64,000 bases of DNA, from the NCBI GenBank assembly GCA_963706595.1, contig OY970166.1, forward strand, positions 1,600,001 to 1,664,000, given 5' to 3'. Every line of letters begins with the position of its first letter. The stretch's first letter is position 1. The stretch is from an uncultured cyanobacterium (lineage in GTDB: Bacteria; Cyanobacteriota; Cyanobacteriia; Cyanobacteriales; Nostocaceae). Below, in pieces: positions 35,879-52,215 of the stretch. The notes below the pieces were generated by a model. The model did no database searches, was not told where the DNA came from, and worked only from the letters and a program-made list of their open reading frames with translations. Both the position numbers and the translations under genes were made by a program.

Positions 35879-36691
35879 CTATAACCAAAACTGGGTTGTC
35901 CAGGTTGCTATACCATTTACTAGTAGTAATAAAATTAAGAGGACTAGGGCTGAGGCGTAGGCGTTAGCGTCTCCTCCAGCAATATTCATGGATAAATCGA
36001 AAATGTGAACGGATAGCGATCGCCCGGAATCTAGTAAGGACTCTGGCATTCTATCTACATAACCACTGGTAAAAATTAATGCGGCTGTTTCGGCGATCGC
36101 GCGTCCAATTCCCAAGACTAAACCCACTATTAACCCCGGTGTGGCTGCTGGTAAAAGTAGTTTCCATAATGTGGTAGTCCGTGATAATCCCAAGGCTGCT
36201 GCCCCTAATCGATACTCTGCGGGAACCGCCTGCAATCCTGCTTCTGTGGAACGAATTAGTATAGGCAACACCATACAAGCTAATGTCAAACCACCAGATA
36301 AAATGGAAAAGCCGAGTCCCAATTTTATTGAGAAAAAGGCGTTCCCAAACAAGCCAAATACAATCGATGGGACTCCGGCTAAGACATCTAAACTGCGACG
36401 CACTAAACGCCCAAAGGCATTTTCTGTACTAGTAAATTCGGCTAATAATATGGCTGTACCCACACCCAGGGGAAGAGAAACGGCCAGACAAACTCCTAAT
36501 ATTAAACCAGTAGAAATCAGTATCGGGGCAATTCCGCCTTCACGCCCAGCATTTCGCGGTTCTGTTGTTAAGAATTCTACAGAAATTTGCCCGATACCAT
36601 GCCAAATGATATCGCCTAAAATCCAGCAAAAAATGGCGGTGACAAAGAGAGCGATCGCCCACATAATCAGAGTAGGTAATGGCAGTTTCAT
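35879..36691 (-). CDS. pstA: Phosphate-type ABC permease PstA
   Basis: LAGVPSIVFGLFG, GRAIAETAA. Confidence 0.9.
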   Translation of the reverse strand: MKLPLPTLIMWAIALFVTAIFCWILGDIIWHGIGQISVEFLTTEPRNAGREGGIAPILISTGLILGVCLAVSLPLGVGTAILLAEFTSTENAFGRLVRRSLDVLAGVPSIVFGLFGNAFFSIKLGLGFSILSGGLTLACMVLPILIRSTEAGLQAVPAEYRLGAAALGLSRTTTLWKLLLPAATPGLIVGLVLGIGRAIAETAALIFTSGYVDRMPESLLDSGRSLSVHIFDLSMNIAGGDANAYASALVLLILLLLVNGIATWTTQFWL

Positions 36692-37566
36692 GGATAAATG
36701 TTTCTCCTGCTGACACCTTCGGCTATGACTACTAAGAAGGCGATCGCCATCATTAACAACAAGCCACTCACAAACAATGCTGAACGGTGGTTTCCGGTAG
36801 CGTAAGCCATCTCTAAAGCGATATTAGCAGTGAGGGTGCGAACAGGATCAAATAAGCTGGTGGGAGTCTGGACTACATTGCCACAAACCATTAAAACTGC
36901 CATTGTTTCCCCAATGGCGCGTCCTGTGCCTAAAATCAACCCAGTCAATAAACCAGATTTAGCCGCAGGTAAAACAACGCCTCGGATGGTTCCCCAATGA
37001 GAGATTCCCAAGGCGGCTGCACCTTGTAGATACTCTTGGGGAACTTTGGCAAAACTGGCTTCTGCGGTGAGTGCAATTGTCGGCAAAATCATGAATGTCA
37101 AAATAGCGATTCCTGCTAACAAACTGGTTCCGGGTGGTTGCAATTTGCCAATCAGGGGGACAAGCACAACTAAACCCCAAAACCCGTAAACGACAGAGGG
37201 AATTCCTGCCAGTAAATTAATTAATTGCCGATAAAATACAGCAATGAAAGCAGGTGCATAATACTGACAAAATATCGCCGAACTTATGCCTATAGGTGCA
37301 GCTAAAATTACCGCACCAAGTGTTACTAACAAACTTCCCCACAACATTGGCAACAAATTATAAAATTCTTGCACTGGATGCCAAGATGGATCAGTGAAAA
37401 AACGTAACCATCCTATCTGTTGTAATACTGGTAATGCTTCGAGTAAGAAGAATCCCGTAATTAAGATAACTATAATACCTGTGATTGCAGCAAATAGCCG
37501 TAATATCCACAGGAGAAGGATATCACTTTGAGATGGGGACAAAATCTTGTTTTTGAACAATATCAT
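36688..37566 (-). CDS. pstC: Phosphate-type ABC permease PstC
   Basis: LAGIPSVVYGFWG, GRAIGETMAV, RTLTANIA. Confidence 0.9.
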   Translation of the reverse strand: MILFKNKILSPSQSDILLLWILRLFAAITGIIVILITGFFLLEALPVLQQIGWLRFFTDPSWHPVQEFYNLLPMLWGSLLVTLGAVILAAPIGISSAIFCQYYAPAFIAVFYRQLINLLAGIPSVVYGFWGLVVLVPLIGKLQPPGTSLLAGIAILTFMILPTIALTAEASFAKVPQEYLQGAAALGISHWGTIRGVVLPAAKSGLLTGLILGTGRAIGETMAVLMVCGNVVQTPTSLFDPVRTLTANIALEMAYATGNHRSALFVSGLLLMMAIAFLVVIAEGVSRRNIYP

Positions 37567-38374
37567 GGACTTGTGGCGACTGGGCAAACTCGATAAATGC
37601 TTGTTTTAAGCCTTGGGGCTGAGTTTTAGTAACCAAATTTAGGGGACGGGAAAGGGGAAATGTCTGATTTTGGATATTCTCAGTAGTCGCGGCGATTTCA
37701 TTTAGTGGTAATAATTTGATAGTAATTCCACTACTCAGGCTAAATTCAGCCGTCCCAATTGATACATAACCAATGGCGTTGGGGTTCCCTGCTACTGTTT
37801 TAATTCCCTGCTGATTGTCGCCAATCACAACCGATGATTTGATATCGCTATTCTGGATTTGGAAGTAATTGAGAAACAATTCCAGGGTAGAACGTCCCTC
37901 AGCTTTATTCACAACTGTAATGGGGGCATTTTTGCCGTTAACCTGTAGCCAGTTGTCAATTTTGCCAGTGTAAATATCTACAACTTGTTGATTTGATAGA
38001 GATTTTACTGGATTGTCTTTATGTAGGATAATGCCAATTCCATCACGCGCGATCGCAAAAGCTTGTAAATCTTCTTCGGCTTTCAGAGAACGAGACACCA
38101 TCCCAATGTCGGCGACTCCTGTCCGCACATCAGCCATACCGCGAGATGAACCTCCTGTTTGCACATCCACTCGTACATTAGGATGTTTTGACTCAAATCG
38201 CTTACCAATTTCTGCTGCTAATGGTGCAACTGTACTAGAACCTGTTAAAACCAACTTTCCTTGTAATTCATTTGTTGATTGAGTCGCTATTTGGGATGGT
38301 TGCGTACAAGATTTTAGCCCCAAGCAAATTGTGAAACCGACAGCAATAAATGCTAGGGTTTTGAGTTGTTTCAT
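37523..38374 (-). CDS. pstS: PstS-like oxyanion-binding lipoprotein
   Basis: Lipobox LKSC, GSSTVAP, GGSSRG, FPLSRPL. Confidence 0.85.
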   Translation of the reverse strand: MKQLKTLAFIAVGFTICLGLKSCTQPSQIATQSTNELQGKLVLTGSSTVAPLAAEIGKRFESKHPNVRVDVQTGGSSRGMADVRTGVADIGMVSRSLKAEEDLQAFAIARDGIGIILHKDNPVKSLSNQQVVDIYTGKIDNWLQVNGKNAPITVVNKAEGRSTLELFLNYFQIQNSDIKSSVVIGDNQQGIKTVAGNPNAIGYVSIGTAEFSLSSGITIKLLPLNEIAATTENIQNQTFPLSRPLNLVTKTQPQGLKQAFIEFAQSPQVHDIVQKQDFVPISK

Positions 38375-38392
38375 CGAGAAAATTTTTAATTT

Positions 38393-38701
38393 CTATTCAA
38401 AGGAAAGGAGACAACAGCCTAAATCAATTACCTGACCAGTATTGACTTGTCGAACCGTTGGCACAAAATGGTAAAGTACCGCCTTACCATCTCTTTTCGC
38501 CTCCACAAAACCTGCTGATCGCAAAATTTTTAAATGGTGAGATAATAAACTTTGTTCTAGCTGCAAGACAGCGTTTATTTCCCCCACGTGTTTAGGACTT
38601 TCCATGAGAATTTTCAGGACAGATAGACGAGTTGTATCTGCTAAAACCTTGAGTTGTTCGGCGCAAAAGGATGGAGACGATATATTTTTAGGCTTCATCA
38701 T
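38393..38701 (-). CDS. arsR: ArsR/SmtB family transcriptional repressor
   Basis: LKVLADTTRL, QSLLSHHLKILR winged HTH; N-terminal Cys and C-terminal CC. Confidence 0.88.
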   Translation of the reverse strand: MMKPKNISSPSFCAEQLKVLADTTRLSVLKILMESPKHVGEINAVLQLEQSLLSHHLKILRSAGFVEAKRDGKAVLYHFVPTVRQVNTGQVIDLGCCLLSFE

Positions 38702-38910: not shown

Positions 38911-39516
38911 TCAAAAATTTATCGCAGTTCCGGTAACAGGATCAAATTCAAAACGCTGTTGATAGTTGGTTTCACCATATAAATTGAAGCTAATTGTCGG
39001 TTGATCACCCAGGGCTTCAACATGATGAATTGCATCAGGCATTAAGCCAATAATTTCGCCTGGATTTAAAATAATATCTCCGGCTTTTTCAATGCTGCCG
39101 TTTTTATTAGTCCGTCTCCAAATAGTATTTTTTTCTTCTCCACTAATCAGTGCGACAACTCCCCAAGTAGCATGGTTGTGAATCGGTGAAACTTTTCCCG
39201 GTAACCAGGCGACTGTCTGCACAGTCAAGGGGAAATCCGGTTCATCATATAGTGTAAGCACTGACCAGCCTGTTTCGGGATTTGGTTCGAGATATTCACC
39301 TTGCAACCATTCTGAACTGGTCAATAATCGCCGCACTAGGGGACAAATCGCTTGGAGTCGAAGGCGATCGCTTTGGAATTTCTGAAGAATATCTTCGAGA
39401 TCCGTTAAAAACCGATAGAGTCGATATTGACCTGTCAATAATTCTAAATTATCTGGCGATTCTTCCCAGGCTTCACACTCACCATCATCTGTTACTAACC
39501 AATCTTGACTTAACAT
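38911..39516 (-). CDS. Cupin / cysteine dioxygenase-like protein
   Basis: SPIHNHATWG and DAIHHV 3-His motif. Confidence 0.82.
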   Translation of the reverse strand: MLSQDWLVTDDGECEAWEESPDNLELLTGQYRLYRFLTDLEDILQKFQSDRLRLQAICPLVRRLLTSSEWLQGEYLEPNPETGWSVLTLYDEPDFPLTVQTVAWLPGKVSPIHNHATWGVVALISGEEKNTIWRRTNKNGSIEKAGDIILNPGEIIGLMPDAIHHVEALGDQPTISFNLYGETNYQQRFEFDPVTGTAINF

Positions 39517-39596
39517 ACTACTTTTATTCAGACAGACAACAAACATCATGCTTTAAATATTATGTCAATATTTAGGCATTAAATAATATTTCTTGA

Positions 39597-42500
39597 TCAA
39601 GCGGTAACTTTGTATAGTTCTCCGTCAAGACGTTTTTTAGCTAGTAGTAATCTGCCTTCAGACTGATGACTATGGAAAGGTTTCTCAATAATCTGATTGA
39701 GTAAAGATACCGTTTGTTTCACTGAGAAGTAAGACGAGAAAACACGTCTATTATCGAAGGTTTCGATAATACTCACTAACAACCAGTCTTGGAGATTATC
39801 GTTAAATGCCTGATGATCGTATTGTTGACTGACTGGAACAAAAGGCTCATCAACCTTGATTAATCTGCCAGAGTTTATATTGGCTAATAGTTGTTCTAGT
39901 ATTTCCACACTTACTTTTCTCTGACCTAACTCTGCTGCTACTCTGGCTAAACTGCAATATCTAAACAACGAAGCTTTAGCTTGAACAGCTTGCTGGATAC
40001 ATTCAAAGGAATGTTTTAAAGTTGCTAACTGTTGTGCTGGTGAAAGGCTGGCTGATTTCGCTAGAAAGAAGTAATTTAGCCCTTCTAAGTAAATTTTAGT
40101 ATCAGCATTGGAAACCGTTGTGTATTCTTGCCACTGATTGAGAAAAGGTATAGCATAATTTAAAGTTGCTATTGCTTCTAACCAATAGGATGAGTTCGGT
40201 AGTAACGGCTTATCTGTGATTTTTTGAACAAGTAAACCACGTTCAGCTAATTGTTGCGATCGCTCTACTTTACAAGCAAACAAGTTTAGTTGGTAGCCAT
40301 CCACTGGCTGATTCACATCAAAAGGAACTAAACACCCAATACCAGAAACTAAATAGTAAATTTCATAGTTTAAGTCTTGGAATAGCTGAATTAGCCGCAT
40401 ATTAATATGTTTGCCATGCTTCAGTTCAAACATAATTAATGGCGATTGCTCAGAGAAGAAATTTTTACCGCCTGCCAGTATTTTAGCTTCTTCCCCTTCC
40501 GCATCTAACTTAATAAAGTCAATTTGCTGCCAGTTATGCTGTTCTAATTCTCTATCCAGATTTAGCAGTTTAATAGTTTCTTTTTCTTGGGATAAACCAT
40601 CTTGCTTGAGTGAATTTAATTCACTATTACTTGATAGAAATAAACTTGCTTCTCCCTCACAATCTGATAAGCCAGCATTAACTAACTCTACATTGTTGAA
40701 ATTGTTAGCTTCTACACCTTTTCGCAGTAAGTAAAACACTGAACTCGCAGGTTCATAAGCAGTAATTTTACCCTGTCCTTGGAGTAACTTAGCCATAGTT
40801 AGAGTATATACTCCATGATTAGCACCAATATCTAGTATTTGCATTCCTGGTGTAATCAATTTCCGCACAAACTCCATTTCTGGCTCAAACCAATCACCCT
40901 GTTCTAGTAAAACATAACCTGTCAGACTGTTGATATCATTCTTCACGCAGACCTTAACTTCACCTTCAATCTCAACTAGGCATTCATCAGGCTCAAGATG
41001 ATCAGCATCAATGAATTTAAAATATTTAATTTCCTCAGAATTATTACCATTTTTCTGAAAAATCGGAGTAACTTTATTAGCAGGTTTAGAGCAATACTGC
41101 TGCAAGAAAACCTTTAAATTTTCCCGGATTTCACTATTATCTGGTTCTACTAACAGCGCACACCGATAATATTTTTCAGCCTGATCAATTAATTCCTGTT
41201 CTTCTAACAGCTTACCTAGTGCTTGATAAGTTGCAGCCGCACAACGATTAATAGCCAGGGATTGCAAATAAGATGAAATAGCATTTTCTACATCATCTAA
41301 CTTTTGATACATCTGACCTAAATAATAGTAAGCCTGAGCATCATTAGGATGATTTTCCAGATACTGTTGATAATAATTAATAGCATTGTCAGCGTCTAAA
41401 TCAACAGGCAAAGCAACATTAATATGAGTCTTTTCACTGTTAGATTCTGCGGTTTCTTTCGCTAAATAAACCTGCCACATTTGGCGATAAGCCGCCTCTA
41501 AAGTGCTGGCCATGTTTTTCACATCCAACAGAGGAGAGTCCAGCAATCTTTCACGCATAGTTGAGCGCAAAGATGCAAGATAGTCTCGATTTTGGGCTAA
41601 TTCAATCGCTTTCTGCACATAATCTGCCGCACTATGGGTAATGCAATCATCCAAACCCACACTGTGGAGAATACTTGCACTCATGCGCTCCATTTTCCGA
41701 GTCCCTGCTAAAGTTAAAGTTGGTACTCCCATCCACAAAGCTTCACAAGTCGTAGTACATCCTGTATAGGGAATACTATCCAAATGCAGATCAACTTGAT
41801 TATAAAGATTCAAGTGGTCTTTATCAGACGCATAGCCACCATACAAGAAAATCCGTTTAGGATCAATACCCTGTTCCACAAAGGGAGTTTGAATTCTTTC
41901 AGCAATTAAGGGGCTGAAAATATCAGAACTAGCACATTTTAATACCAAGCGAGAATGAGGAACTGCTTTGAGGATTTCAACCCACAGAGCAAAAGTTTCT
42001 GGTGTGAGTTTGCGTAAATTATTAAAAGATGCAAAAGTGAAAATACCAGTTTTTTTACAAGGAAGTTCAGTAATATTCGGTGCAGCTTTCAGGGTTTCAT
42101 AACCCACATAACAACGGGGTAAACGCCAAATGCTTTCGCTGGTTTTTTCGAGTGTATCATCAGGATGAAGAACTTCATCAGTAATCCAATAGTCAATAGT
42201 CGATAAGCCTGTCGTAGCAAAATAACCCAAATAAGTCACTTGAATCGGGGCTGGTTTCATCCCCAAGACAATCATCCGGTTATTTGCAGTATGTCCTGCC
42301 AAATCAACCAGAACATCTATCCGGTCTGCTTGAATCAACTCAGCTACTTCCAAATCCGAAAGACCAACCGTAGAACGCCAAGCATCACAGATATCTATAA
42401 TTTCATCTGTAATTTCATCAGGTGTATTCACTTCTCCATAGCAGAAAACTTCCACTTGGGTGCGGTCATGGTGTTGGAAGACAGGTTTTATAAATCCACT

Positions 42501-44318
42501 AACTGAATGTCTCCGGAAATCAGGAGAAATATAGCCAATGCGTAAGCGACGTTGTGGATTTCTATCATTTCTGTGAGTAATGAGAGTTGGTAGCCATTGA
42601 TTAACTACTTGCTGCTGATACCACAATTTAGCAGAGTCTAAAATCTGTTGAGGAGTAAAACTAATCAACGAACTTAAATTAAACAGAAAACAACAATGTA
42701 GTTTAGGATTATTGGGATTAATTTTTAACGCTTCATTTAACAGACTTATGCACTCTGACAACTTACCTTGTTCCCCGGAAAGAAATCCTAAAAGTTCGTA
42801 GGTTTCGCCATGATTAGGGTCTAATTGCAGGACTTGTTGGAAACATTCGAGAGCTAAATCAATCTGGGCATTTCTGTAGTAAGCATAGCCTAAGTTGTTT
42901 AGAGAATCAATGTGATTTGGATTAATCTTTACAGCCTGACGGTAAGAAGAAATAGCTGCGGGATAATCTTTTTGATTTTGGAAAATCACACCTAAATTAT
43001 AATGTGCTAACACACAATCTGGGTCAAGCTCTATCACAGATTTAAAATAACTTTTCGCTTGTTCCCATTGACTCTGACGCACCAACATTACCCCAGTATC
43101 ATTAATTTTTTCCGTGAGACTAGGTAATAATTCTAGGTCTGTTTGTGTTAACAGATTTTCAATATAATCCCCACCTTCCCCTTGTTGCCAAAGTAAAGCT
43201 AAATTGAACTTTGCACCCTGATAATCTGGATCTATTTTCAATACTTCAGAAAACTGCTCTATTGCCTTTGCAAACTGCTTTTGCCGCTTCAAAATTAATC
43301 CTAAACGATAGTGAGCCTTAGAATAATTGGGTTTGATGCTAATAGCATGAGTATAATTATCAATAGCCTTGTCCCACTCATCTTGTTGTTCATAGACAAA
43401 GCCCAAATTATAGTGAGATTTTGCTAACTGGGGTTGGATACTCAGAGCGCGTAAATACCATTTTGCGGCTAGGGTTAAATCATTTTGTAAAGTCAGGGCT
43501 GTTCCTAGCAAATGGCATACTTCCGCCGCTTCCGTTAACCGCCCCATTGCAGTTAAATGAGAAACAAGATATTGATCAATAGATTCATAAAACTGCACCC
43601 GCATTTCTGCCTTAAAATTGCGAGTTTGAGCGAGAAGTTGGTCAATTTGTCTTAGTAGAGCTTCTAATTGAATTGATGCTAAATGTTGCTCTAGTCTTTG
43701 AGCTAAACTCAAATTGTCTTCATGAGCAAATTGCTGTAGTAATGGTTGAAGTAAAGTTTCAATAATTAAGCATTGTTGAGGATTCAGAACCTCTTGCCAT
43801 TGCTCTGGTATCTCTGACTCTAATGGATAATTCTTTAATAACAGTGAAATATCAGTTTCAGTCAGGGCAATTTCTAAATATTTGGCTAATTGCTCAATTT
43901 CTAAATGTTCTTTTAAAATTAAGTTTTTTTTAGAGATTAATAAAGTTTTACTTAAATCAGGAAACCTCTTTTCTTGGTATAATTGCCAAAGTTCCAGAAA
44001 AGTAGATTCAAAAGTTGCCTTTTCTTTTGGGCAAGTAATGACAGCAGCCAGAATTTCACGGGGGTCTTGATGCAGATAAATACTCTTAGCTTGGCCTTGC
44101 TGAATTTTTTCTAACGCTAATTCTGAAGGAATTTGATATTGAATCAGCGTTAGTAGTGTGGGTTCTCCGATTATTTTAAAATAAGCGTCAATCTCAGCCG
44201 CCGCTTTACAAGCAGTGCCTTGAATATTTATTTTACCAGTTTGAGTCAGTAGAGCTTGACAAAGATTGTGACACAAACTTCTTAAATCCTGAGTTATTCC
44301 ACCACAAAAAATAATCAT
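39597..44318 (-). CDS. Multidomain TPR + GT41 (O-GlcNAc transferase/SPINDLY-like) + TPR + FkbM methyltransferase
   Basis: RIGYISPDFRRHSV, DLAGHT, PAPIQVTYLGY, FNNLRK, EALWMGVP; LDIGANHG and IKLDAEGEE FkbM motifs. Confidence 0.92.
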   Translation of the reverse strand: MIIFCGGITQDLRSLCHNLCQALLTQTGKINIQGTACKAAAEIDAYFKIIGEPTLLTLIQYQIPSELALEKIQQGQAKSIYLHQDPREILAAVITCPKEKATFESTFLELWQLYQEKRFPDLSKTLLISKKNLILKEHLEIEQLAKYLEIALTETDISLLLKNYPLESEIPEQWQEVLNPQQCLIIETLLQPLLQQFAHEDNLSLAQRLEQHLASIQLEALLRQIDQLLAQTRNFKAEMRVQFYESIDQYLVSHLTAMGRLTEAAEVCHLLGTALTLQNDLTLAAKWYLRALSIQPQLAKSHYNLGFVYEQQDEWDKAIDNYTHAISIKPNYSKAHYRLGLILKRQKQFAKAIEQFSEVLKIDPDYQGAKFNLALLWQQGEGGDYIENLLTQTDLELLPSLTEKINDTGVMLVRQSQWEQAKSYFKSVIELDPDCVLAHYNLGVIFQNQKDYPAAISSYRQAVKINPNHIDSLNNLGYAYYRNAQIDLALECFQQVLQLDPNHGETYELLGFLSGEQGKLSECISLLNEALKINPNNPKLHCCFLFNLSSLISFTPQQILDSAKLWYQQQVVNQWLPTLITHRNDRNPQRRLRIGYISPDFRRHSVSGFIKPVFQHHDRTQVEVFCYGEVNTPDEITDEIIDICDAWRSTVGLSDLEVAELIQADRIDVLVDLAGHTANNRMIVLGMKPAPIQVTYLGYFATTGLSTIDYWITDEVLHPDDTLEKTSESIWRLPRCYVGYETLKAAPNITELPCKKTGIFTFASFNNLRKLTPETFALWVEILKAVPHSRLVLKCASSDIFSPLIAERIQTPFVEQGIDPKRIFLYGGYASDKDHLNLYNQVDLHLDSIPYTGCTTTCEALWMGVPTLTLAGTRKMERMSASILHSVGLDDCITHSAADYVQKAIELAQNRDYLASLRSTMRERLLDSPLLDVKNMASTLEAAYRQMWQVYLAKETAESNSEKTHINVALPVDLDADNAINYYQQYLENHPNDAQAYYYLGQMYQKLDDVENAISSYLQSLAINRCAAATYQALGKLLEEQELIDQAEKYYRCALLVEPDNSEIRENLKVFLQQYCSKPANKVTPIFQKNGNNSEEIKYFKFIDADHLEPDECLVEIEGEVKVCVKNDINSLTGYVLLEQGDWFEPEMEFVRKLITPGMQILDIGANHGVYTLTMAKLLQGQGKITAYEPASSVFYLLRKGVEANNFNNVELVNAGLSDCEGEASLFLSSNSELNSLKQDGLSQEKETIKLLNLDRELEQHNWQQIDFIKLDAEGEEAKILAGGKNFFSEQSPLIMFELKHGKHINMRLIQLFQDLNYEIYYLVSGIGCLVPFDVNQPVDGYQLNLFACKVERSQQLAERGLLVQKITDKPLLPNSSYWLEAIATLNYAIPFLNQWQEYTTVSNADTKIYLEGLNYFFLAKSASLSPAQQLATLKHSFECIQQAVQAKASLFRYCSLARVAAELGQRKVSVEILEQLLANINSGRLIKVDEPFVPVSQQYDHQAFNDNLQDWLLVSIIETFDNRRVFSSYFSVKQTVSLLNQIIEKPFHSHQSEGRLLLAKKRLDGELYKVTA

Positions 44319-44379
44319 AAAAGCCTTCCACTGATAATAAGTTCACTAAAAATGATCAATCCAGCCAAATATCCAGTTA

Positions 44380-44576
44380 GAGGATGTTTTAAAAGTTTTG
44401 GGCGAATATAATATGGCTACGCCACGCCAAGGGCGAACGCTACTACACAAGCAAAGTCCAGCGACCTGGACTAATGAAGAATTAAGGTTTTTAACCCGCG
44501 TAGGCGGGTTTTGTCTGTATAGCTGCGACTTCTAGTCGCCGAGGCTCGTAATAAATTAGACTTTACAAACATCCTC
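44380..44576. mobile_element. MITE family A, copy 3, with an internal micro-insertion
   Basis: Same terminal repeats, TTA target duplication; extra ~24 nt at 44413-44437. Confidence 0.8.
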
Positions 44577-44579
44577 TTA

Positions 44580-44700
44580 GGGACTTCCAAATAAAAAAAA
44601 CTCCACAACCTAACCCAAAAACCTCTCAAACTCTCATGACTCTGTGTCCTCTGTGCCTCCGTGGTTAGTTTATTTGGATCATTTATTTCTGGAAAGTCCC
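44580..44700. mobile_element. MITE family B
   Basis: GGGACTTCCA ... TGGAAAGTCCC flanked by TTA on both sides. Confidence 0.7.
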
Positions 44701-44878
44701 TTATACAGCAGGTTGCAGGTATATGAAGTACAAAAGCAATAGTGAAAATATTGTGGGGGAGGGCAAAGATGCCCGCCCTTGTGTACCTCACAAAAATGAA
44801 ATGTGCTGTATGATCTCTAGTTAATTACTTATATCACAAGTAACCCAGGAGCAAATTACCATATAACTGAGTCCATAG

Positions 44879-45331
44879 CTAATCTAAAGCAGAAGAACCG
44901 CCACTTTGCCATGATTTAACAATGCCAATAATATCACCAAAGCGATTCTGATGCATAGCAGTATTAATGGCGCGAGCAATAGCAGATTGAATGGTTTGAT
45001 CTGTATGATTTACAGTCCCAGCATACATATTTCCCCTGATAATTACCACCTGACTAGAATCATGTCCGACAGCAGCATAGGTAACTCCCAGGGTCAGTTG
45101 ACCACTAGGGCTGACAGAACTTTGTGGAAATACGATTTCAGAGGCAAAACTGCTAGTTGTACCATTGGATAAAATGCTAGTAACTGCCGCCGAGGTTCTA
45201 GACTGGGAATCTGTACCAATAAACTGAGCCTGAGCAGGTTTTCCCGCTATAAATGAGCTGACAATAGCTCCCCCTAGCAAGAGAAACGCAATCACAGATT
45301 TGCTTGGTGTGTAGCTACAGTTGGTATTCAT
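44879..45331 (-). CDS. Secreted Ser/Thr/Ala-rich protein (paralog B), C-terminus KSWQSGGSSALD
   Basis: Signal peptide ending AQA; 150 aa. Confidence 0.85.
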   Translation of the reverse strand: MNTNCSYTPSKSVIAFLLLGGAIVSSFIAGKPAQAQFIGTDSQSRTSAAVTSILSNGTTSSFASEIVFPQSSVSPSGQLTLGVTYAAVGHDSSQVVIIRGNMYAGTVNHTDQTIQSAIARAINTAMHQNRFGDIIGIVKSWQSGGSSALD

Positions 45332-45566
45332 GATTGGGAAGTTCTAGTTGTTCACTATCCCAAGATTCACAACTTCAACTTTCACATCAGAATAAAAAAA
45401 GATGACATTGAGTCAAATTAAGAATAAAATAACCTCATCCCCTGGTTGAACTCACGGGGATGAAGTATGTGGGATAGGTCTTTGACTTTCTGTCCTATCT
45501 ACCATGAAGTTCGTTGATGATTCCTGCTATGTTCTCTTATGAGTAGGAATTATCGACTTTCTCTGA

Positions 45567-46019
45567 CTAATCCAAGGCAGAAGAACCGCCACTTTGCCAT
45601 GATTTAACAATGCCGATAACGTCACCAAATCTTGATGAAGTCGCAGCAAGATCAATAGAACGAGCAGTAGCAGCTTCTACTGTGCTAGCACTATAAATTG
45701 CAGTAGCAGCACTCATACTTGCGTTCACAATCGCGATTTGACTAACGTCAGTACCAATTGTAGCATATGTAAGATCAAGCTCTAAAGCACCAGTCGAAGC
45801 AATACTTGATTCTGGAAATACAATTTCAGCCGCAAAGCTGTTAGTATTGTCATTCGATAAAATACTAGTCACAGCCGCAGATACTCTTGATTGAGACTCA
45901 GCACCGATGAACTGAGCTTTAGCTGGTTCAGCAGAAATGAATGATGCTGCAACTGCGCTACCTGCTAAAAGGGAGGAAATAGCAGCAGCTTTTAATGTCT
46001 TGTTAGATTTTACGCTCAT
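45567..46019 (-). CDS. Secreted Ser/Thr/Ala-rich protein (paralog A), C-terminus KSWQSGGSSALD
   Basis: Signal peptide ending AKA; AGGTGA RBS; 150 aa. Confidence 0.85.
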   Translation of the reverse strand: MSVKSNKTLKAAAISSLLAGSAVAASFISAEPAKAQFIGAESQSRVSAAVTSILSNDNTNSFAAEIVFPESSIASTGALELDLTYATIGTDVSQIAIVNASMSAATAIYSASTVEAATARSIDLAATSSRFGDVIGIVKSWQSGGSSALD

Positions 46020-47023
46020 GGTTATATCACCTGATTTTGTTTACTAAAATCTACTCGCTACAAAAAATAGCCATCTTCTGTATTCAAGAAAAACCTTAAT
46101 TTTCAGCTTTTCAACCTTCAGATAGAGATTCAATTTCTGAGCATAAAGGAAGCATTTTTTAGTTCAGACATCCTCAGAAAAATAATCAAGGAAAAATTTA
46201 ATTTTTCCTGAAACCTGAAAGTAGAGATTACACAGATTGCGTGTCTAGGTTCTAGCAACGAGTAAGAATATGCTTCATAGCTTAAGCGAAGCATAATCAG
46301 TTTGTCAAGAAGAAAAATGTTTTATTATTAACTAAATTTTGTGAAGCTTTTACATAAAATTACTTAGGTAAAATTTCTGTAATTTTATGATTAAAAATAT
46401 TTATTTACCAAGTAATATTGCTTGAATTGCAGGCTGAAAGTAAATCTTTGCTTCAATTTGACTCTTAATATCAAGTTAGTATAATTAGCTATGTTTGCCT
46501 CTAGCAGCCCTAGTCATACCCTCCCCTGACTAATTAATTATTCACAAATACATTGTAAAACCTATACAGAGTAACGATTTAAGGGTTTCAATTTTTATTA
46601 CATGGTGAGATGTATTCGTGCCTACCGATTGAGAAAGGAATTATCTTCAATTTTATACAAGAAATATTTAGCCTCAAAAATACTCATCAGTGCAGTTACA
46701 CAAGTACAAATATACTTATTACATAATATTACTTGTTCAAGACCAACGAAATCAAATTATTAATTAAGTGACTTTACATAATTTATGTCCCAATAAAAAT
46801 ATATTAGAAATCAAAAATATTTGCTATCTTAAGACATAAAGTTTTTAGATATAAGCATTTGAGTGAGGTGCAACGCCCTTGCTATATGCTATGTAACTTT
46901 TTTTAACGAATTAGGTCAAAATTATCGGAACCTATCTCGGATGAAGGTGATATTTTGCCAGTTCTTTAGCTCATAAATATCTTTTTCGTTGTAATTGTTA
47001 CAAAGAATTTATATAAGAATATT

Positions 47024-50000
47024 ATGGATACACAACGTCTTTTCTGGTTTGCTGGGATTTTATTGAGTCTATTGGCCTCAGAATCCTTATCGGCACAAGC
47101 TTTGACAACAGGGAAAAAAAAAGTAGAGACTCTGAACAGTATCAATATAATCAGTCAGGATAATGAAACTAAAAAACAGTCAGAATTAACAAAAAAAGCG
47201 TTTGGGGAAAAACACATCACTCCTTCTAATCCAGAAATAATAACTTTTATTGGTTTTTCCCCAAAACAAACATCGTTTAATGCAGAAATCAATCGCAGTC
47301 AAGATTCTGCATATAAGTTACTAGAAAAATTGCTACATAAAAACTCTAGTTGTCAGAAACATTCTCAGAAGAATTCACCACCAATACCCGTCACGAAGGA
47401 AGATAACACCGATACTCAGCAATACATTCAGCCAGAACTCTCTGATTGTGAAGAGGATAGTATTTCCTTTCGGCTATCTAACTCTAATAATAGTCAGATT
47501 TTGAATGAGGATTCAAAGCTTAAGTTAAATCTCAAAGATTCCGCCAATTTACAGGTTGAAAAGTTAGATTCTGAACCCACCTTTTCGCCTCAGTTATTGA
47601 TTGCACAAGAAACAAATAATCAAAGCCAAGTACCGTTGATTCCCCTTCAACCAAATCTACCTATAGTTCCCGATGAATTACCTTCTTTACCCATTCCAGA
47701 AGATATACCAGAAGATAAACCCGCATTAACACCTGAAGATACACCAGAGGATAAACCAGTATTAACACCTGAAGAAAATCAAAAACTGCTGAGGACTTTA
47801 ATCCGTAGCTTGTTAGAAAACAGCGCCTCCAGATATCCATTCCTGGTAAACACCAGCGATAAGCTTATTATTAACCCTCGTAATTTTCGACCTTTGAAAT
47901 TTGATTTTTATTCAAATTTTAATTTTGATTTGGATAAGTTTGAGCCTAGTGGTCCCTCTCAACCAGAACAATTTAGTGATCCTCTAATTAAATCAGCTAA
48001 TATTTCTTTTTATCCTGATGATAATCAGTTCTATTGGGTTTTAGATGGGAATCGAGTGGTGATTTCGACTGAAGGAAAACATTTTAACCTTGGTTATCAG
48101 GGAAGGAGTACTCAAGAAAATAGTAGACAAGTTGCTAAAGTCTCTACAGTTTTTTGGGGCGTGCAAACAGTATTTGGTATTCCTAATATCTTTGGAGATT
48201 TAGTTGGTGATAAGAAGTTAGAGGATTTAAATATTATTAGCGGTGCTGCGGAAATAGTATTACCTCCGGGAGCTACTTTAGCTGATAATGCCAGCTTTAC
48301 TATTAATGTAACTCAACAAGATGGAAGTTTTTTTAAAAACTTTATTCCTCTAGATGACACACGCAAAGCCACTACAGGTACACTTTTGGGAGGAGGTTCT
48401 TTCTTTGATAATTTAGATGCTACGAATGCGCCTAAATTTTTACAAGGGTTTCCTACTATCAATTTACAACCTTTGTTAAATAATGGTGTGAAGCTAGAAA
48501 TTGGCACTATTATTCCCCCTGAAAATCTTACTGCTGCTGGACTGACATTCGGTGATTTTTTCACTAAGGAAGGATTTCAATTTAATTCTCCAATTAGTTC
48601 TTTACCTGGGATAAAGAATTTACGTATTAATCAAACTGATAATGATGATATTGTAGCGATTCTCAGCAATCCTTTTTTAACTAAGGAAGAAAGAGATTTT
48701 CATTATCTCAATTCTTTGCAGTGGTATAACTTTGGTCAACAAAGTCCTGACGTTACTAGTTCGCCTACATCAGATATTAATAATCAAGATTGGCAGAGAT
48801 ATACTGTCAGTTGGTCAAAGAACCGGACTTTATTGGAATATGATCCAGAAAATATTAAACTTAGTTATTTAAATGTTTTTTCTAATCCTGGTTTATCTAT
48901 AACTACAACCCAATGGAAAAATACTGATTTTAATCAAACTATAAATGCTAGTTTAGGTTTAATGATGGGTAGCGTCTTTAATTTAATTAATCCGGGGAAT
49001 TTAAATGAAACTATTGGTGAGGCTAAGGAAAAGTATAAAAATTTGCAACCGTTAGCTACTTTGAATACTAAAGCTACATCTCAACAACGAAGACAAATGA
49101 ATGAACGGTTAAATAGCACGCTGAATTATGGTAATAGCAATAGTAAACTTGCTCAAGTTTCAGGAAGTTATACTTTTGCGGGAAATGTGACTCCAGAGAG
49201 TTCATTGTTATTACAAATGAGAACTGGTATTTACCAAAGAAGTGTGCAATTTATTCAGCAAGATATACAAGACTGGACTCCTGAAACTCCTGTGTTTATA
49301 GATTTTGCTCGTCCCAGTGATTTGGGTCCGATATTTTTTACTGGTGTTAATATTCCTACTAATGGAACTCAAATTAATGCCCCTCAAACGTTTGAAGTTA
49401 GTTTTCTTCGGGCTGAAACTTCAGATGGAGAAGTTTTAATTGATCAATCTTATGTTTTTGACAATAATTTGGCTAGTCTATTTACAGCAGTGCCAATTTT
49501 GGGGGCGGGTAAAACCTATGATATAGATTTTGGACGGATAAAACTGAGCAAGTTTCGACAAAGAGATATTTCAACATCTTCTTATGTCGGACATCTCTAT
49601 TTACCATCGATTGAATTTGTGATGACAGGAAGTGTTAACAATCTTAGTTATGCTTTATCTACGGGAATGTGGTTTAATTTCTCTCCAGATTCTGCACCTC
49701 TTGTTAATAATAATTTGGGTAATTTGAATGCTAATGCTACTACAGAAAGTTTTATGGGAGGAATGTTGAAGTTTTCGGCTAAAGCAGATTTTAATAATAT
49801 ATTTTATGATAATAATAAACAGTGGAATACTATTATATCTAATGCACCTTTTGTTTCGCTAGATTATAATACTAATCCTAATCGTCTTAATCTTTCAAAT
49901 ATTTCTATTGGTAATGTGTTTCAGTTTGTCAAACCAGATTTTAATATAGTTTTTTATCCGATTCTAACTTATTATCCTAAATTACTCAATTCTGGTGTTG

Positions 50001-50344
50001 ATTCTAACAGTGTGGGTGACATTAATGCTTTTTTTCTCCTGAGTTTTTCCCATAAAGTGGGGTTAAACTTTAATGGTTCTTTATCTCTGGGTAATCAAGC
50101 TTTCTACAAGTTTGAAACTACTTATGATGTGATTAAGAATAAAAATTTTGGGACTTTAAAAGTTGGTCCTTACTATTCTAATCATTCTTCGGCTACTAGA
50201 GGGTTTGAAAGCCAATTTGAAGATCCTAATTATGGAATGGTATTTGGCTATGAAAGTGCTAATTCTGGTTTGTTGTTAAATTCTCGTTTAGGAACTAGCA
50301 ATTATGGTCTTAGAGGAGAAGTGAACTTGGAGTTTAAATTTTAG
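47024..50344 (+). CDS. Large exported protein, probable outer-membrane beta-barrel
   Basis: Signal peptide, Pro/Glu-rich linker, amphipathic C-terminal strands ending in GEVNLEFKF (terminal Phe). Confidence 0.75.
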   Translation: MDTQRLFWFAGILLSLLASESLSAQALTTGKKKVETLNSINIISQDNETKKQSELTKKAFGEKHITPSNPEIITFIGFSPKQTSFNAEINRSQDSAYKLLEKLLHKNSSCQKHSQKNSPPIPVTKEDNTDTQQYIQPELSDCEEDSISFRLSNSNNSQILNEDSKLKLNLKDSANLQVEKLDSEPTFSPQLLIAQETNNQSQVPLIPLQPNLPIVPDELPSLPIPEDIPEDKPALTPEDTPEDKPVLTPEENQKLLRTLIRSLLENSASRYPFLVNTSDKLIINPRNFRPLKFDFYSNFNFDLDKFEPSGPSQPEQFSDPLIKSANISFYPDDNQFYWVLDGNRVVISTEGKHFNLGYQGRSTQENSRQVAKVSTVFWGVQTVFGIPNIFGDLVGDKKLEDLNIISGAAEIVLPPGATLADNASFTINVTQQDGSFFKNFIPLDDTRKATTGTLLGGGSFFDNLDATNAPKFLQGFPTINLQPLLNNGVKLEIGTIIPPENLTAAGLTFGDFFTKEGFQFNSPISSLPGIKNLRINQTDNDDIVAILSNPFLTKEERDFHYLNSLQWYNFGQQSPDVTSSPTSDINNQDWQRYTVSWSKNRTLLEYDPENIKLSYLNVFSNPGLSITTTQWKNTDFNQTINASLGLMMGSVFNLINPGNLNETIGEAKEKYKNLQPLATLNTKATSQQRRQMNERLNSTLNYGNSNSKLAQVSGSYTFAGNVTPESSLLLQMRTGIYQRSVQFIQQDIQDWTPETPVFIDFARPSDLGPIFFTGVNIPTNGTQINAPQTFEVSFLRAETSDGEVLIDQSYVFDNNLASLFTAVPILGAGKTYDIDFGRIKLSKFRQRDISTSSYVGHLYLPSIEFVMTGSVNNLSYALSTGMWFNFSPDSAPLVNNNLGNLNANATTESFMGGMLKFSAKADFNNIFYDNNKQWNTIISNAPFVSLDYNTNPNRLNLSNISIGNVFQFVKPDFNIVFYPILTYYPKLLNSGVDSNSVGDINAFFLLSFSHKVGLNFNGSLSLGNQAFYKFETTYDVIKNKNFGTLKVGPYYSNHSSATRGFESQFEDPNYGMVFGYESANSGLLLNSRLGTSNYGLRGEVNLEFKF

Positions 50345-50492
50345 GATGTCTCTGATTTATCTGTGTTAAATGGCGGAGGTTTTCTGGCTGATTTGAGTTA
50401 TGGCTGGGCAGTGGGTTAAAACTCTTTTGGTCTCTAAGTTTGATTATCCGTTTATGTCTTAACCTCCTTGGCGGTTGCTATAACTCAAAGAT

Positions 50493-51050
50493 TCAGTCTA
50501 AAGCTGGGATGGGAAATGAAAGTGTAGTATTGGTGATCAAGGAACCGGCGGTGGTGACATTAAAATTTACATCCGCAGGTGCAACAATCTGATTAGAAGG
50601 TATAACAACATTAATATTAGCGCTGCTAACTGTAGTGGAAATATCAATATTCACACTTCCTGTCCCTGTTTTTATTTCAGGTTCATTAGTTCCTCGTTTG
50701 ATAGCAGATACAAAGCTAGGGCGTGTCGGACTTGTTCCTTGAATTTTAAATTCAGTTGGTGGCTGATTATTTGGGATATTTATTACTGATGGAGTTGGTA
50801 TTTGAACAGTTGTAATGGGAACGCTGATGGTGGAAATATTTTGTGTGGGGATTCTTGGTATTGTAACGGTTGGTATGGGAACGCTGATGGTGGGTTGTAC
50901 GATGGAAATTTTGGGTATTGTTATGGTGGGAATCTTCGGTCTGGGTATGGATTGGGCTTGAGCAGTTTCAGATATGAAAGCGGATAGAAGGAGTGTTAAG
51001 AGTAAGCTTTTAATTTCCATATTTGGTAGAGGTTTGATTGTGGGTGTCAT
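50493..51050 (-). CDS. Secreted Pro/Thr/Ile-rich protein ending IPALD
   Basis: Signal peptide ending AQA; IPT/IP repeats. Confidence 0.7.
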   Translation of the reverse strand: MTPTIKPLPNMEIKSLLLTLLLSAFISETAQAQSIPRPKIPTITIPKISIVQPTISVPIPTVTIPRIPTQNISTISVPITTVQIPTPSVINIPNNQPPTEFKIQGTSPTRPSFVSAIKRGTNEPEIKTGTGSVNIDISTTVSSANINVVIPSNQIVAPADVNFNVTTAGSLITNTTLSFPIPALD

Positions 51051-51607: not shown

Positions 51608-51941
51608 ATCAATCTGTACTTGCATCTAAAATTGCTCAGGAATTATGCGCCAAATCCTTGATTTTCGCCTGCATCAGTCCTGAACTGCTATGTGTTTTTG
51701 GTTTGATTTTTAGCCAGTTGCAGTGAAGTGGTGATCTCGTGCTGTAACTACCTGTATCAACCATTTAGAGGCGTTCTACAGCGCGACGATCAGCAACTGG
51801 CAATTGTGTGGGATTTCTGAGACTAGAGGTATTTTATCCCTCAGACTACGAAGCTGTTTGTCTCAGTGACCCGGCTGATATATTTATTAAAACTGCAATA
51901 GGCAAATTTTGTCTGCCAAATTGCCATAATGTCAAACAGCA

Positions 51942-51983
51942 GTGGGGAGTGGGGAGTGGGGAGTGGGGAGTGGGGAGTGGGGG
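51942..51983. repeat. Heptamer tandem repeat (GTGGGGA)n, STRR-like
   Basis: About six tandem copies. Other heptamer runs at 12093-12123 (AATTCAA) and 25966-26005 (TTACGAA). Confidence 0.8.
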
Positions 51984-52215
51984 AGAAGAGGAATGGTTGT
52001 GAAGTAACCGGAAGTTTAAAATAATTTCTTACTCCCCCTTGCTCCCTGCGCCCTGCTCCCCTGCTTCTTCTGGGGAGTGGGTTAAAAGCCGAATGAAGTT
52101 TGATTATCCGTTTATGTCTTACTATAAGTGAGATACAAGAACCCCACCCCCAACCCCCTCCCCGCAAGCGAGGAGGGGGCTATGATTTACTTCATTGAAG
52201 TGCATACCGCTAGAT

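Follow-up and report, generated by a model that had tools for sequence, protein, structure and literature searches.

A putative CT pilus gene cluster in a Nodularia-type cyanobacterium: coupled pilin and barrel genes, a shared C-terminal tail and lineage-variable modification genes

In a 64,000-nucleotide stretch of DNA from an uncultured cyanobacterium of the Nostocaceae (contig OY970166.1, positions 1,600,001 to 1,664,000; hereafter the window) we identified a locus that we read, with a probability of about 0.8, as a gene cluster for a cyanobacterial tubular (CT) pilus; the two pilins encoded there are predicted to polymerise outside the cell, forming a rigid tube that carries glycans. The CT pilus was published in August 2025 for Microcystis aeruginosa PCC 7806SL, in which the pilin is MrpC/BH695_0841 (PDB 9btq) and the cluster BH695_0836-0841 encodes the pilin, a pilin-like protein, an O-GlcNAc transferase, an FkbM methyltransferase, a beta-sheet-rich adhesion protein and a cell-surface/porin protein (Ricca et al., Nat Commun 2025, PMC12397347). 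By homology every part of the window locus has a Microcystis counterpart, and we assign it to the published system because its pilins are homologous, because its gene content matches, because Nodularia is among the genera named in that article as having homologous clusters (its supplement file 2 contains Nodularia 16 times, the row displayed being a Nodularia spumigena pilin homolog) and because its predicted outer-membrane protein is 94% identical to a protein of N. spumigena. The first-pass annotation of this DNA had called the locus an undescribed system, a claim overturned by the 2025 article with Nodularia as a named carrier. Its model of a glycosylated fibre exported through a dedicated barrel survives in part: the Ser/Thr-rich MrpC homologs and the match to the published cluster speak for it, whereas the fibre would be a rigid tube with a fold of its own and not the curli- or fimbria-like structure that had been envisaged. 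The CT pilus cluster is already known; what the parts of PMC12397347 available to us do not contain is the conservation of the C-terminal tail, the strictness of the pilin-barrel association and the variation of the modification genes between lineages. The literature searched contained no further paper with the phrase "CT pilus" or "CT pili".

The pilins carry this assignment. The two 150-residue paralogs, A and B, share 82 of 150 residues (55% identity, E = 5e-59), with the identity concentrated at the mature start and the C-terminus, and the conserved ends for which they had first been noticed are present in both, namely QFIG..SQSR.SAAVTSILSN at the mature N-terminus and RFGD.IGIVKSWQSGGSSALD at the C-terminus. 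When searched with phmmer against the PDB, each had a single match, 9btq_A ("pilin"; E = 2.7e-22 and 83 bits for paralog B, E = 3e-18 and 69.4 bits for paralog A), an entry titled "extracellular tube from Microcystis aeruginosa PCC 7806SL", which was also the sole match of a profile of 32 family sequences (E = 2.7e-16). Foldseek likewise placed 9btq first for the AlphaFold2 (AF2) model of paralog B (E = 3.1e-07, 46% identity), the runner-up having an E-value of 0.58. These matches make both paralogs homologs of the CT pilin MrpC. The model of paralog B has strands at residues 45-53, 59-67, 73-87 and 95-108 followed by helices at 114-128 and 131-148, and this order of four strands and then two helices fits the two beta-hairpins and helix-turn-helix published for the CT pilin (PMC12397347), which supports the pilin identity.

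By inspection and alignment both pilins begin with a Sec signal peptide: the N-region is basic, a hydrophobic core follows and the peptide closes with an A-x-A site, in which Ala35 is invariant in 32 of 32 pilin sequences. Cleavage is predicted after AQA in paralog A and after AKA in paralog B, leaving 115 residues of the latter (the 9btq chain has 124 residues in the Foldseek table vs. 158 in the sequence record); both paralogs end in SSALD, and Ser and Thr make up 26-27% of the mature pilins. Paralog B is probably the major pilin, a weak assignment that we make because it is closer to MrpC (83 vs. 69.4 bits) and lies farther from the enzyme gene, as BH695_0841 does. Paralog A, which adjoins the GT41 (glycosyltransferase family 41) gene in the same placement as the Microcystis pilin-like gene, is likely the pilin-like or minor subunit. 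Contigs from RNA libraries (two studies, runs X1-X4) span paralog A and the adjoining spacer at 44897-45606 with 7 differences in 710 bases, and also cover parts of the GT41 gene as well as the barrel gene at its 3' end; they document presence and do not by themselves prove transcription. Metatranscriptome contigs of at least 95% likeness reach just the last 40 bases of paralog B and little of the barrel gene, and because a gap in such contigs shows nothing, the two paralogs cannot be ranked by expression.

Database searches with the pilins brought little beyond this. A single-sequence search with paralog B had no match in 40 related genomes, which we attribute to limited sensitivity because a profile found a divergent pilin together with a barrel in a genome of the same genus (G009). 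The best ESM Atlas score was 0.75, to an unnamed cyanobacterial cluster. The label "TEK-like protein" used by NCBI was absent as a phrase from the literature searched, a query combining TEK with Anabaena gave irrelevant matches only, and no NCBIfam model matched six family members.

The 1106-residue product of the divergently transcribed gene is a predicted outer-membrane beta-barrel and a candidate platform for pilus assembly and secretion. It comprises a signal peptide (by eye), a disordered Pro/Ser/Lys/Glu-rich part to residue ~245 and a beta-rich body at 295-1106 with conserved non-barrel inserts; in the AF2 model the predicted local distance difference test (pLDDT) is below 50 over residues 1-244, and long strands with blocks of pLDDT 85-94 occupy 565-1106. 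The terminal residue is Phe, as it is in 59 of 68 relatives, so the exported protein with a beta-signal-like final Phe that had been picked out at first pass is borne out by its end, its beta-rich modelled body and its barrel matches. These matches were to LptD and TonB-receptor barrels in Foldseek (E ~1e-4, template modelling (TM) scores just 0.15/0.25) and to generic barrels such as VDAC and porins in VIA-align (Z 10-13.6; FimD usher, Z 11.1). Pfam and NCBIfam contain no family that matched the protein, and a profile of it run against 1.84 billion protein representatives returned 74 matches (70 at E <=1e-10) and no link to a known outer-membrane family. The barrel gene is single-copy in the genome; its product is 45-46% identical to Microcystis proteins, and the relatives span 900 to ~1470 residues. 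Invariant residues are densest at 450-499 (12 of 78 counted, 79 being listed), a stretch which, to residue 479, lies within a low-confidence non-barrel insert of the AF2 model and could be a plug or docking module. The N-terminal part, residues 1-245 (47024-47760), has a high content of Ser, Leu, Pro, Lys and Glu, contains repeats of the PEDxPEDKP type, is not conserved and varies in length; in one relative (genome G262) this region holds five near-identical repeats of ~50 residues. A complex prediction for barrel residues 245-1106 with mature pilin B (36-150), made from our own alignments and without controls, gave a score of 0.00 and a mark of 0.32 and speaks neither for nor against binding.

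How strictly do pilin and barrel belong together? We found 106 barrel relatives in contigs representing one genome per species and kept 80 loci, which include Nostoc, Microcystis, Moorena, Scytonema, Phormidium and Snowella. BLAST clustering of the neighboring open reading frames (ORFs) made the pilins one dominant family, with 113 ORFs in 63 of the 80 loci, and a pilin hidden Markov model, built partly from the same 80 loci on which it was scored, raised this to 115 ORFs in 64 loci, including 60 of the 66 with at least 3 kb on both sides of the barrel gene. Of the six well-flanked loci lacking a pilin, three are from Microcystis, and in one of these three, L012, the pilins lie just past the fetched flank. 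Most pilin-bearing loci have two copies (40) or one (20); three copies were counted in 1 locus and four in 3. Among 401 evenly sampled cyanobacterial genomes the pilin was detected in 23 and the barrel in 26, all 23 pilin genomes also having the barrel and 22 of them having both on one contig within ~10 kb; related genomes are not independent, and counted by genus the pilin and barrel occur in 14 and 15 of 155. Pilin and barrel are a strictly coupled core. This upholds one half of the co-occurrence predicted by the first-pass annotation and not the other, since GT41 homologs stand near the barrel gene in few loci, as described below. The three genomes with a barrel only (G166, G208 and G225) belong to one family, are ~3.3-3.4 Mb in size and have barrel E-values from 1e-196 to 1e-126 (on two contigs in G225), with no pilin at E <=1e-4; either their pilins are very divergent or the barrel has been put to another use.

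The third secreted protein of the locus, 185 residues long, has a signal peptide, Pro-rich repeats of the I-P-T-I type and a Ser/Thr-rich C-terminal domain ending in FPIPALD. It matched no Pfam or NCBIfam family and nothing usable in the ESM Atlas, and its description at first pass as an exported protein otherwise unrelated to the pilins was sound: BLASTP gave no alignment with them, and hhalign gave a probability of 0.45%, over the signal peptides only. Homologs lie directly beside the barrel gene in 10 of the 80 loci, three of which are from Microcystis, and the protein corresponds to the "beta-sheet-rich adhesion protein" of the Microcystis cluster; we refer to it as adhesin-like.

What the pilins and this unrelated protein share is the C-terminal tail. 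We scanned 4736 non-overlapping ORFs of at least 80 residues in the 5.57-Mb genome, which is 94% complete, and found three that end in ALD: paralog A, paralog B and the 185-residue protein. That all three such ORFs are genes of this locus argues that the shared ending is not due to chance. Twenty-two of the 4736 end in LD, and those among them shorter than 400 residues with a signal-peptide-like start are again only the same three. Across the loci, the final two residues of 113 of the 115 pilin ORFs fit [LM][DE] (LE 64, LD 43, ME 5, MD 1), the exceptions being a 58-residue fragment and one ORF ending in LL, and all 108 close database relatives of paralog B end in LD. In the adhesin-like family 92 of 95 members end in LD; one exception has four residues added after PPVLD. 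A search of the main text of PMC12397347 for "C-terminal" and "C-terminus" found no mention of a shared tail. In Microcystis (VLD with VLD) and here (ALD with ALD) the third-last residue of the pilin tail agrees with that of the adhesin-like tail; a covariation of the two was considered and rejected because it is broken in three loci (ALD with VLD in L003, ALD with TLD in L006 and L007).

Fused pilins were also met with. In genome G262 (locus L086, 7077-8711 on the plus strand of G262:C1:3688500-3698500) a secreted protein of 544 residues contains four tandem CT-pilin domains and ends in IIRAGAGSGLE; it looks like a covalently linked pilin tetramer, and its gene adjoins those of a normal 148-residue pilin and a 1225-residue barrel. 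G250, G212 and G231 likewise have long open frames (373-555 residues) in which the pilin domain matches several times.

The remaining gene of the cluster encodes a 1573-residue enzyme consisting of an N-terminal region, tetratricopeptide repeats (TPR) at ~255-545, a GT41 catalytic part at ~560-960, a second TPR block, an FkbM domain at ~1161-1319 and a C-terminal region. This is the TPR-GT41-FkbM architecture read from the DNA at first pass, and the family models agree: Pfam Glyco_transf_41 (PF13844) scores 184.4 bits (cut-off 25), Methyltransf_21, the FkbM domain, 52.3 bits (cut-off 22.7) and NCBIfam fkbM_fam 92.6 bits (cut-off 37.7), and several TPR families exceed their cut-offs. The equivalog for HMW1C-type N-glucosyltransferases, NF049992, scores 31.3 bits, below its cut-off of 1000. 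The window enzyme, which contains 30 cysteines, shows no signal peptide by eye; judged by its domains, it combines in one protein what separate O-GlcNAc transferase and FkbM genes encode in Microcystis.

Elsewhere the modification genes differ. In 12 of the 80 loci the barrel gene has a homolog of the GT41 catalytic part within 10 kb; nine of these homologs (six from loci close to the window's own and three from Microcystis) are 60-86% identical to the window protein, and an FkbM homolog lies within that distance in 8 of 80. In other lineages we found FkbM with GT4 (L006), GT1 with a TylF-type methyltransferase protein (L013) and TPR-GT41 with a GT2-methyltransferase (L054). A sugar-transferring enzyme and a methyltransferase are found paired in one lineage after another, but the enzyme families involved are not the same ones. 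Two of these loci have no GT41: L006, from Sphaerospermopsis, encodes the FkbM and GT4 domains in one protein of 1400 residues, and L013 encodes a 1532-residue protein with TylF and several methyltransferase domains beside a 792-residue GT1 protein. The latter is the second locus of Chrysosporum bergii, which has two separate barrel loci (L005 and L013).

We envisage that the cluster would act as follows. In the cytoplasm the TPR-GT41-FkbM enzyme would O-glycosylate Ser and Thr residues of the pilin precursors before export and probably methylate the sugars; in Microcystis each MrpC subunit carries ten O-linked monosaccharides on the outer face of the extracellular tube, and O-GlcNAc on the immature pilin is known from earlier work cited in the same article (PMC12397347). 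Two glycan residue masses given there for Microcystis, 160 and 174 Da, lie 14 Da apart, which we take to be a single methyl group; "methyl" itself appears once in the main text of that article, as part of the enzyme name. The precursors would then be exported by Sec and cleaved by signal peptidase after A-x-A to yield 115-residue subunits starting with QFIG. In the periplasm, the 1106-residue barrel would take up the subunits and serve as assembly and secretion pore, with no PapD-type chaperone involved; the authors of the CT pilus study liken the corresponding cell-surface/porin protein to an usher (PMC12397347). The subunits would stack through antiparallel beta-hairpins into a tube ~11 nm wide, in which paralog B might supply the bulk and paralog A and the 185-residue protein the minor, tip or base parts. 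Lastly, the hydrophobic-acidic [LM][DE]-COOH end may be the feature recognised by the machinery or by the growing filament. The likely role of the pilus, by analogy with the CT pili of Microcystis, which cause its cells to gather into micro-colonies kept up in the water column and which bind microcystin (PMC12397347, abstract), would be to bridge filaments into aggregates and hold their position in the water.

Several points weigh against this reading of the locus and its mechanism. All functional claims for the window organism are carried over from Microcystis. The AF2 model of paralog B overlays 9btq poorly (TM 0.37/0.44, root-mean-square deviation 11.2) and its pLDDT, 67.7, is only moderate, for which reasons the fold match to the CT pilin is one of topology only; the same superposition problem with AlphaFold models of this family is stated in PMC12397347. 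In the alignment paralog B has Asp and paralog A has Asn at the position of MrpC Ser132; at that of Ser138, B has Ser and A has Asn, so that neither glycosylation site confirmed by tandem mass spectrometry in Microcystis is fully kept. The presence of GT41 near the barrel in just 12 of 80 loci means that GT41 glycosylation is not core to the family. The role proposed for the barrel comes from gene linkage alone, its structural matches being generic barrels with low TM-scores, and three of the sampled genomes carry the barrel with no detected pilin.

The first-pass annotation had proposed that the barrel reads an xLD tag at the C-terminus; the tail would be either such a recognition tag or a contact within the filament. 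That the tail is a structural hook-latch contact of the finished filament and is not read during export, the adhesin-like protein mimicking it in order to dock on the tube, is a real possibility even if short of probable. It counts against a signal function that in the solved pilus the C-terminal loop forms, with the helix-turn-helix, the axial "hook" interface (PMC12397347), and the four-domain fused pilin keeps IRAG.G internally and has the GLE end in its last domain only. Against a purely structural tail is that, of 95 members of the unrelated adhesin-like fold, which range from Nostocales to Microcystis with ~30% identity, 92 retain LD, a pattern more typical of a free-carboxylate tag. A tag of this kind would imply a hitherto unrecognised outer-membrane pathway that works without chaperones, in which a barrel of ~850 residues confined to cyanobacteria reads the free [LM][DE] carboxylate and the tail is a portable sorting signal on unrelated cargo (pilins, fused multi-pilins and adhesin-like proteins); we put this forward tentatively and consider it on the doubtful side.

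It is also conceivable that CT pili are made and that the barrel is a base anchor, a porin or an exporter of some other surface polymer, the pilins crossing the outer membrane by other means. The lack of a specific fold match to a known usher or secretin, as opposed to generic barrels at low TM-scores, would fit such a role, as would the three of 26 barrel-bearing genomes without a pilin match, and the CT pilus authors themselves call its biogenesis unclear (PMC12397347). We nevertheless think this unlikely: every one of the 23 pilin genomes has the barrel (22 of them on one contig within ~10 kb), well-flanked barrel loci have a pilin in 60 of 66 cases, and the linkage holds from Microcystis to Nostoc, Moorena and Scytonema. 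The barrel family is moreover compact and isolated (74 representatives in 1.84 billion proteins), as expected of a dedicated part, and the loci share no second conserved candidate for an outer-membrane component. That the locus is a classical chaperone-usher system, as might be suggested by the conserved termini of the secreted subunits, by the large outer-membrane protein beside them and by a FimD usher among the structural matches (Z 11.1), is highly improbable, since PapD_N (PF00345) and Usher (PF00577) had 0 matches in the 94%-complete genome while the control genomes responded (E. coli in the case of Usher), and the barrel has no Pfam family and matches FimD no better than dozens of unrelated porins.

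The genes of the locus as we interpret it, a CT pilus cluster, are listed in Table 1. The spacer between the divergent pilin and barrel genes presumably holds the promoters of both sides; GC content is 0.324 across 46001-48000, and the spacer has no repeat copies in the rest of the genome. Short dispersed repeats fill the spacers on either side of genes of the cluster (44370-44811, 50404-50489 and 51939-52215, with up to 56, 52 and 188 copies, respectively). An ORF of 106 residues at 44471-44791 is probably not a gene because it sits within a dispersed repeat of up to 56 genomic copies. Many of the RNA-library contigs break or diverge at 44488-44540 and 44809. Directly upstream of the cluster, at 35879-38701, lie a gene for a small ArsR-like regulator and genes whose translations, judged by eye, are two permeases and a PstS-like binding protein of a phosphate ABC transporter, and 38911-39549 encodes a 212-residue protein with weak cupin/cysteine-dioxygenase-like matches; none of these is conserved beside the barrel in the other loci.

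Table 1. Parts of the putative CT pilus locus, with positions in the window
Feature	Position	Strand	Source
TPR-GT41-FkbM enzyme, 1573 aa	39597-44318	-	ORF map
Pilin paralog A, 150 aa	44879-45331	-	ORF map
Pilin paralog B, 150 aa	45567-46019	-	ORF map
AT-rich spacer, 1004 bp, between divergent pilin and barrel genes	46020-47023		ORF map
Predicted outer-membrane barrel protein, 1106 aa, end ...NLEFKF	47024-50344	+	ORF map
Adhesin-like secreted protein, 185 aa, end ...FPIPALD	50493-51050	-	ORF map

The presence of a complete cluster in a Nodularia-type bloom-former suggests that this appendage may also serve aggregation in filamentous bloom-formers, and its parts are therefore candidate targets for studying or disrupting bloom formation. 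The most useful leads on the route of assembly are the tail motif in two unrelated secreted families and the coupling of pilin and barrel. Together, a coupled core, a shared tail and modification genes that vary with lineage make the question of export and assembly directly experimental.

The systems with which the locus can be compared differ in how much of it they resemble. GT41 protein glycosyltransferases include eukaryotic OGT and SPINDLY and the bacterial HMW1C, which acts on the HMW1 adhesin. The window enzyme resembles these in combining TPR with a GT41 catalytic domain and in being predicted to act in the cytoplasm on a substrate that is later exported by Sec, and differs in its fusion to an FkbM methyltransferase, which is particular to the window clade. 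HMW1C-type enzymes are furthermore N-glucosyltransferases, whereas the sugars of the Microcystis pilin are O-linked (PMC12397347). The gas vesicle shell protein GvpA, which showed no sequence relation to the locus proteins in any of our searches, is described as the sole structure with remotely similar packing, being hollow and made of tight antiparallel beta-hairpins (PMC12397347); its sheets are single-layered and those of the CT pilus double-layered, and gas vesicles are intracellular and gas-filled. Chaperone-usher pili such as Fim and Pap share with the locus their Sec-exported subunits, a co-encoded outer-membrane barrel and a division into major and minor or adhesin subunits, an analogy also drawn in PMC12397347, but the CT pilin fold is different and forms a hollow tube of antiparallel beta-structure without donor-strand exchange (PMC12397347).

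Closest is the Microcystis CT pilus cluster, whose order we rebuilt as two 152-residue pilins (ending in SVLD), a TPR-GT41 protein of 1067 residues, a GT41+FkbM protein of 1251 residues, a protein of 232-269 residues (ending in PVLD) and the barrel. In the window the GT41 and FkbM parts are fused into one protein of 1573 residues in place of those two proteins, the pilin and enzyme genes are divergent from the barrel gene whereas in Microcystis all are on one strand, the barrel is shorter (1106 vs. ~1240-1470 residues), and the glycosylation sites confirmed by mass spectrometry are kept only in part. Common to the two clusters are a pair of pilin paralogs in each, homologous at 46% identity (Foldseek), a GT41 homolog whose catalytic domain is 60% identical, an FkbM domain, a barrel that is 45-46% identical and an adhesin-like protein with an LD end.

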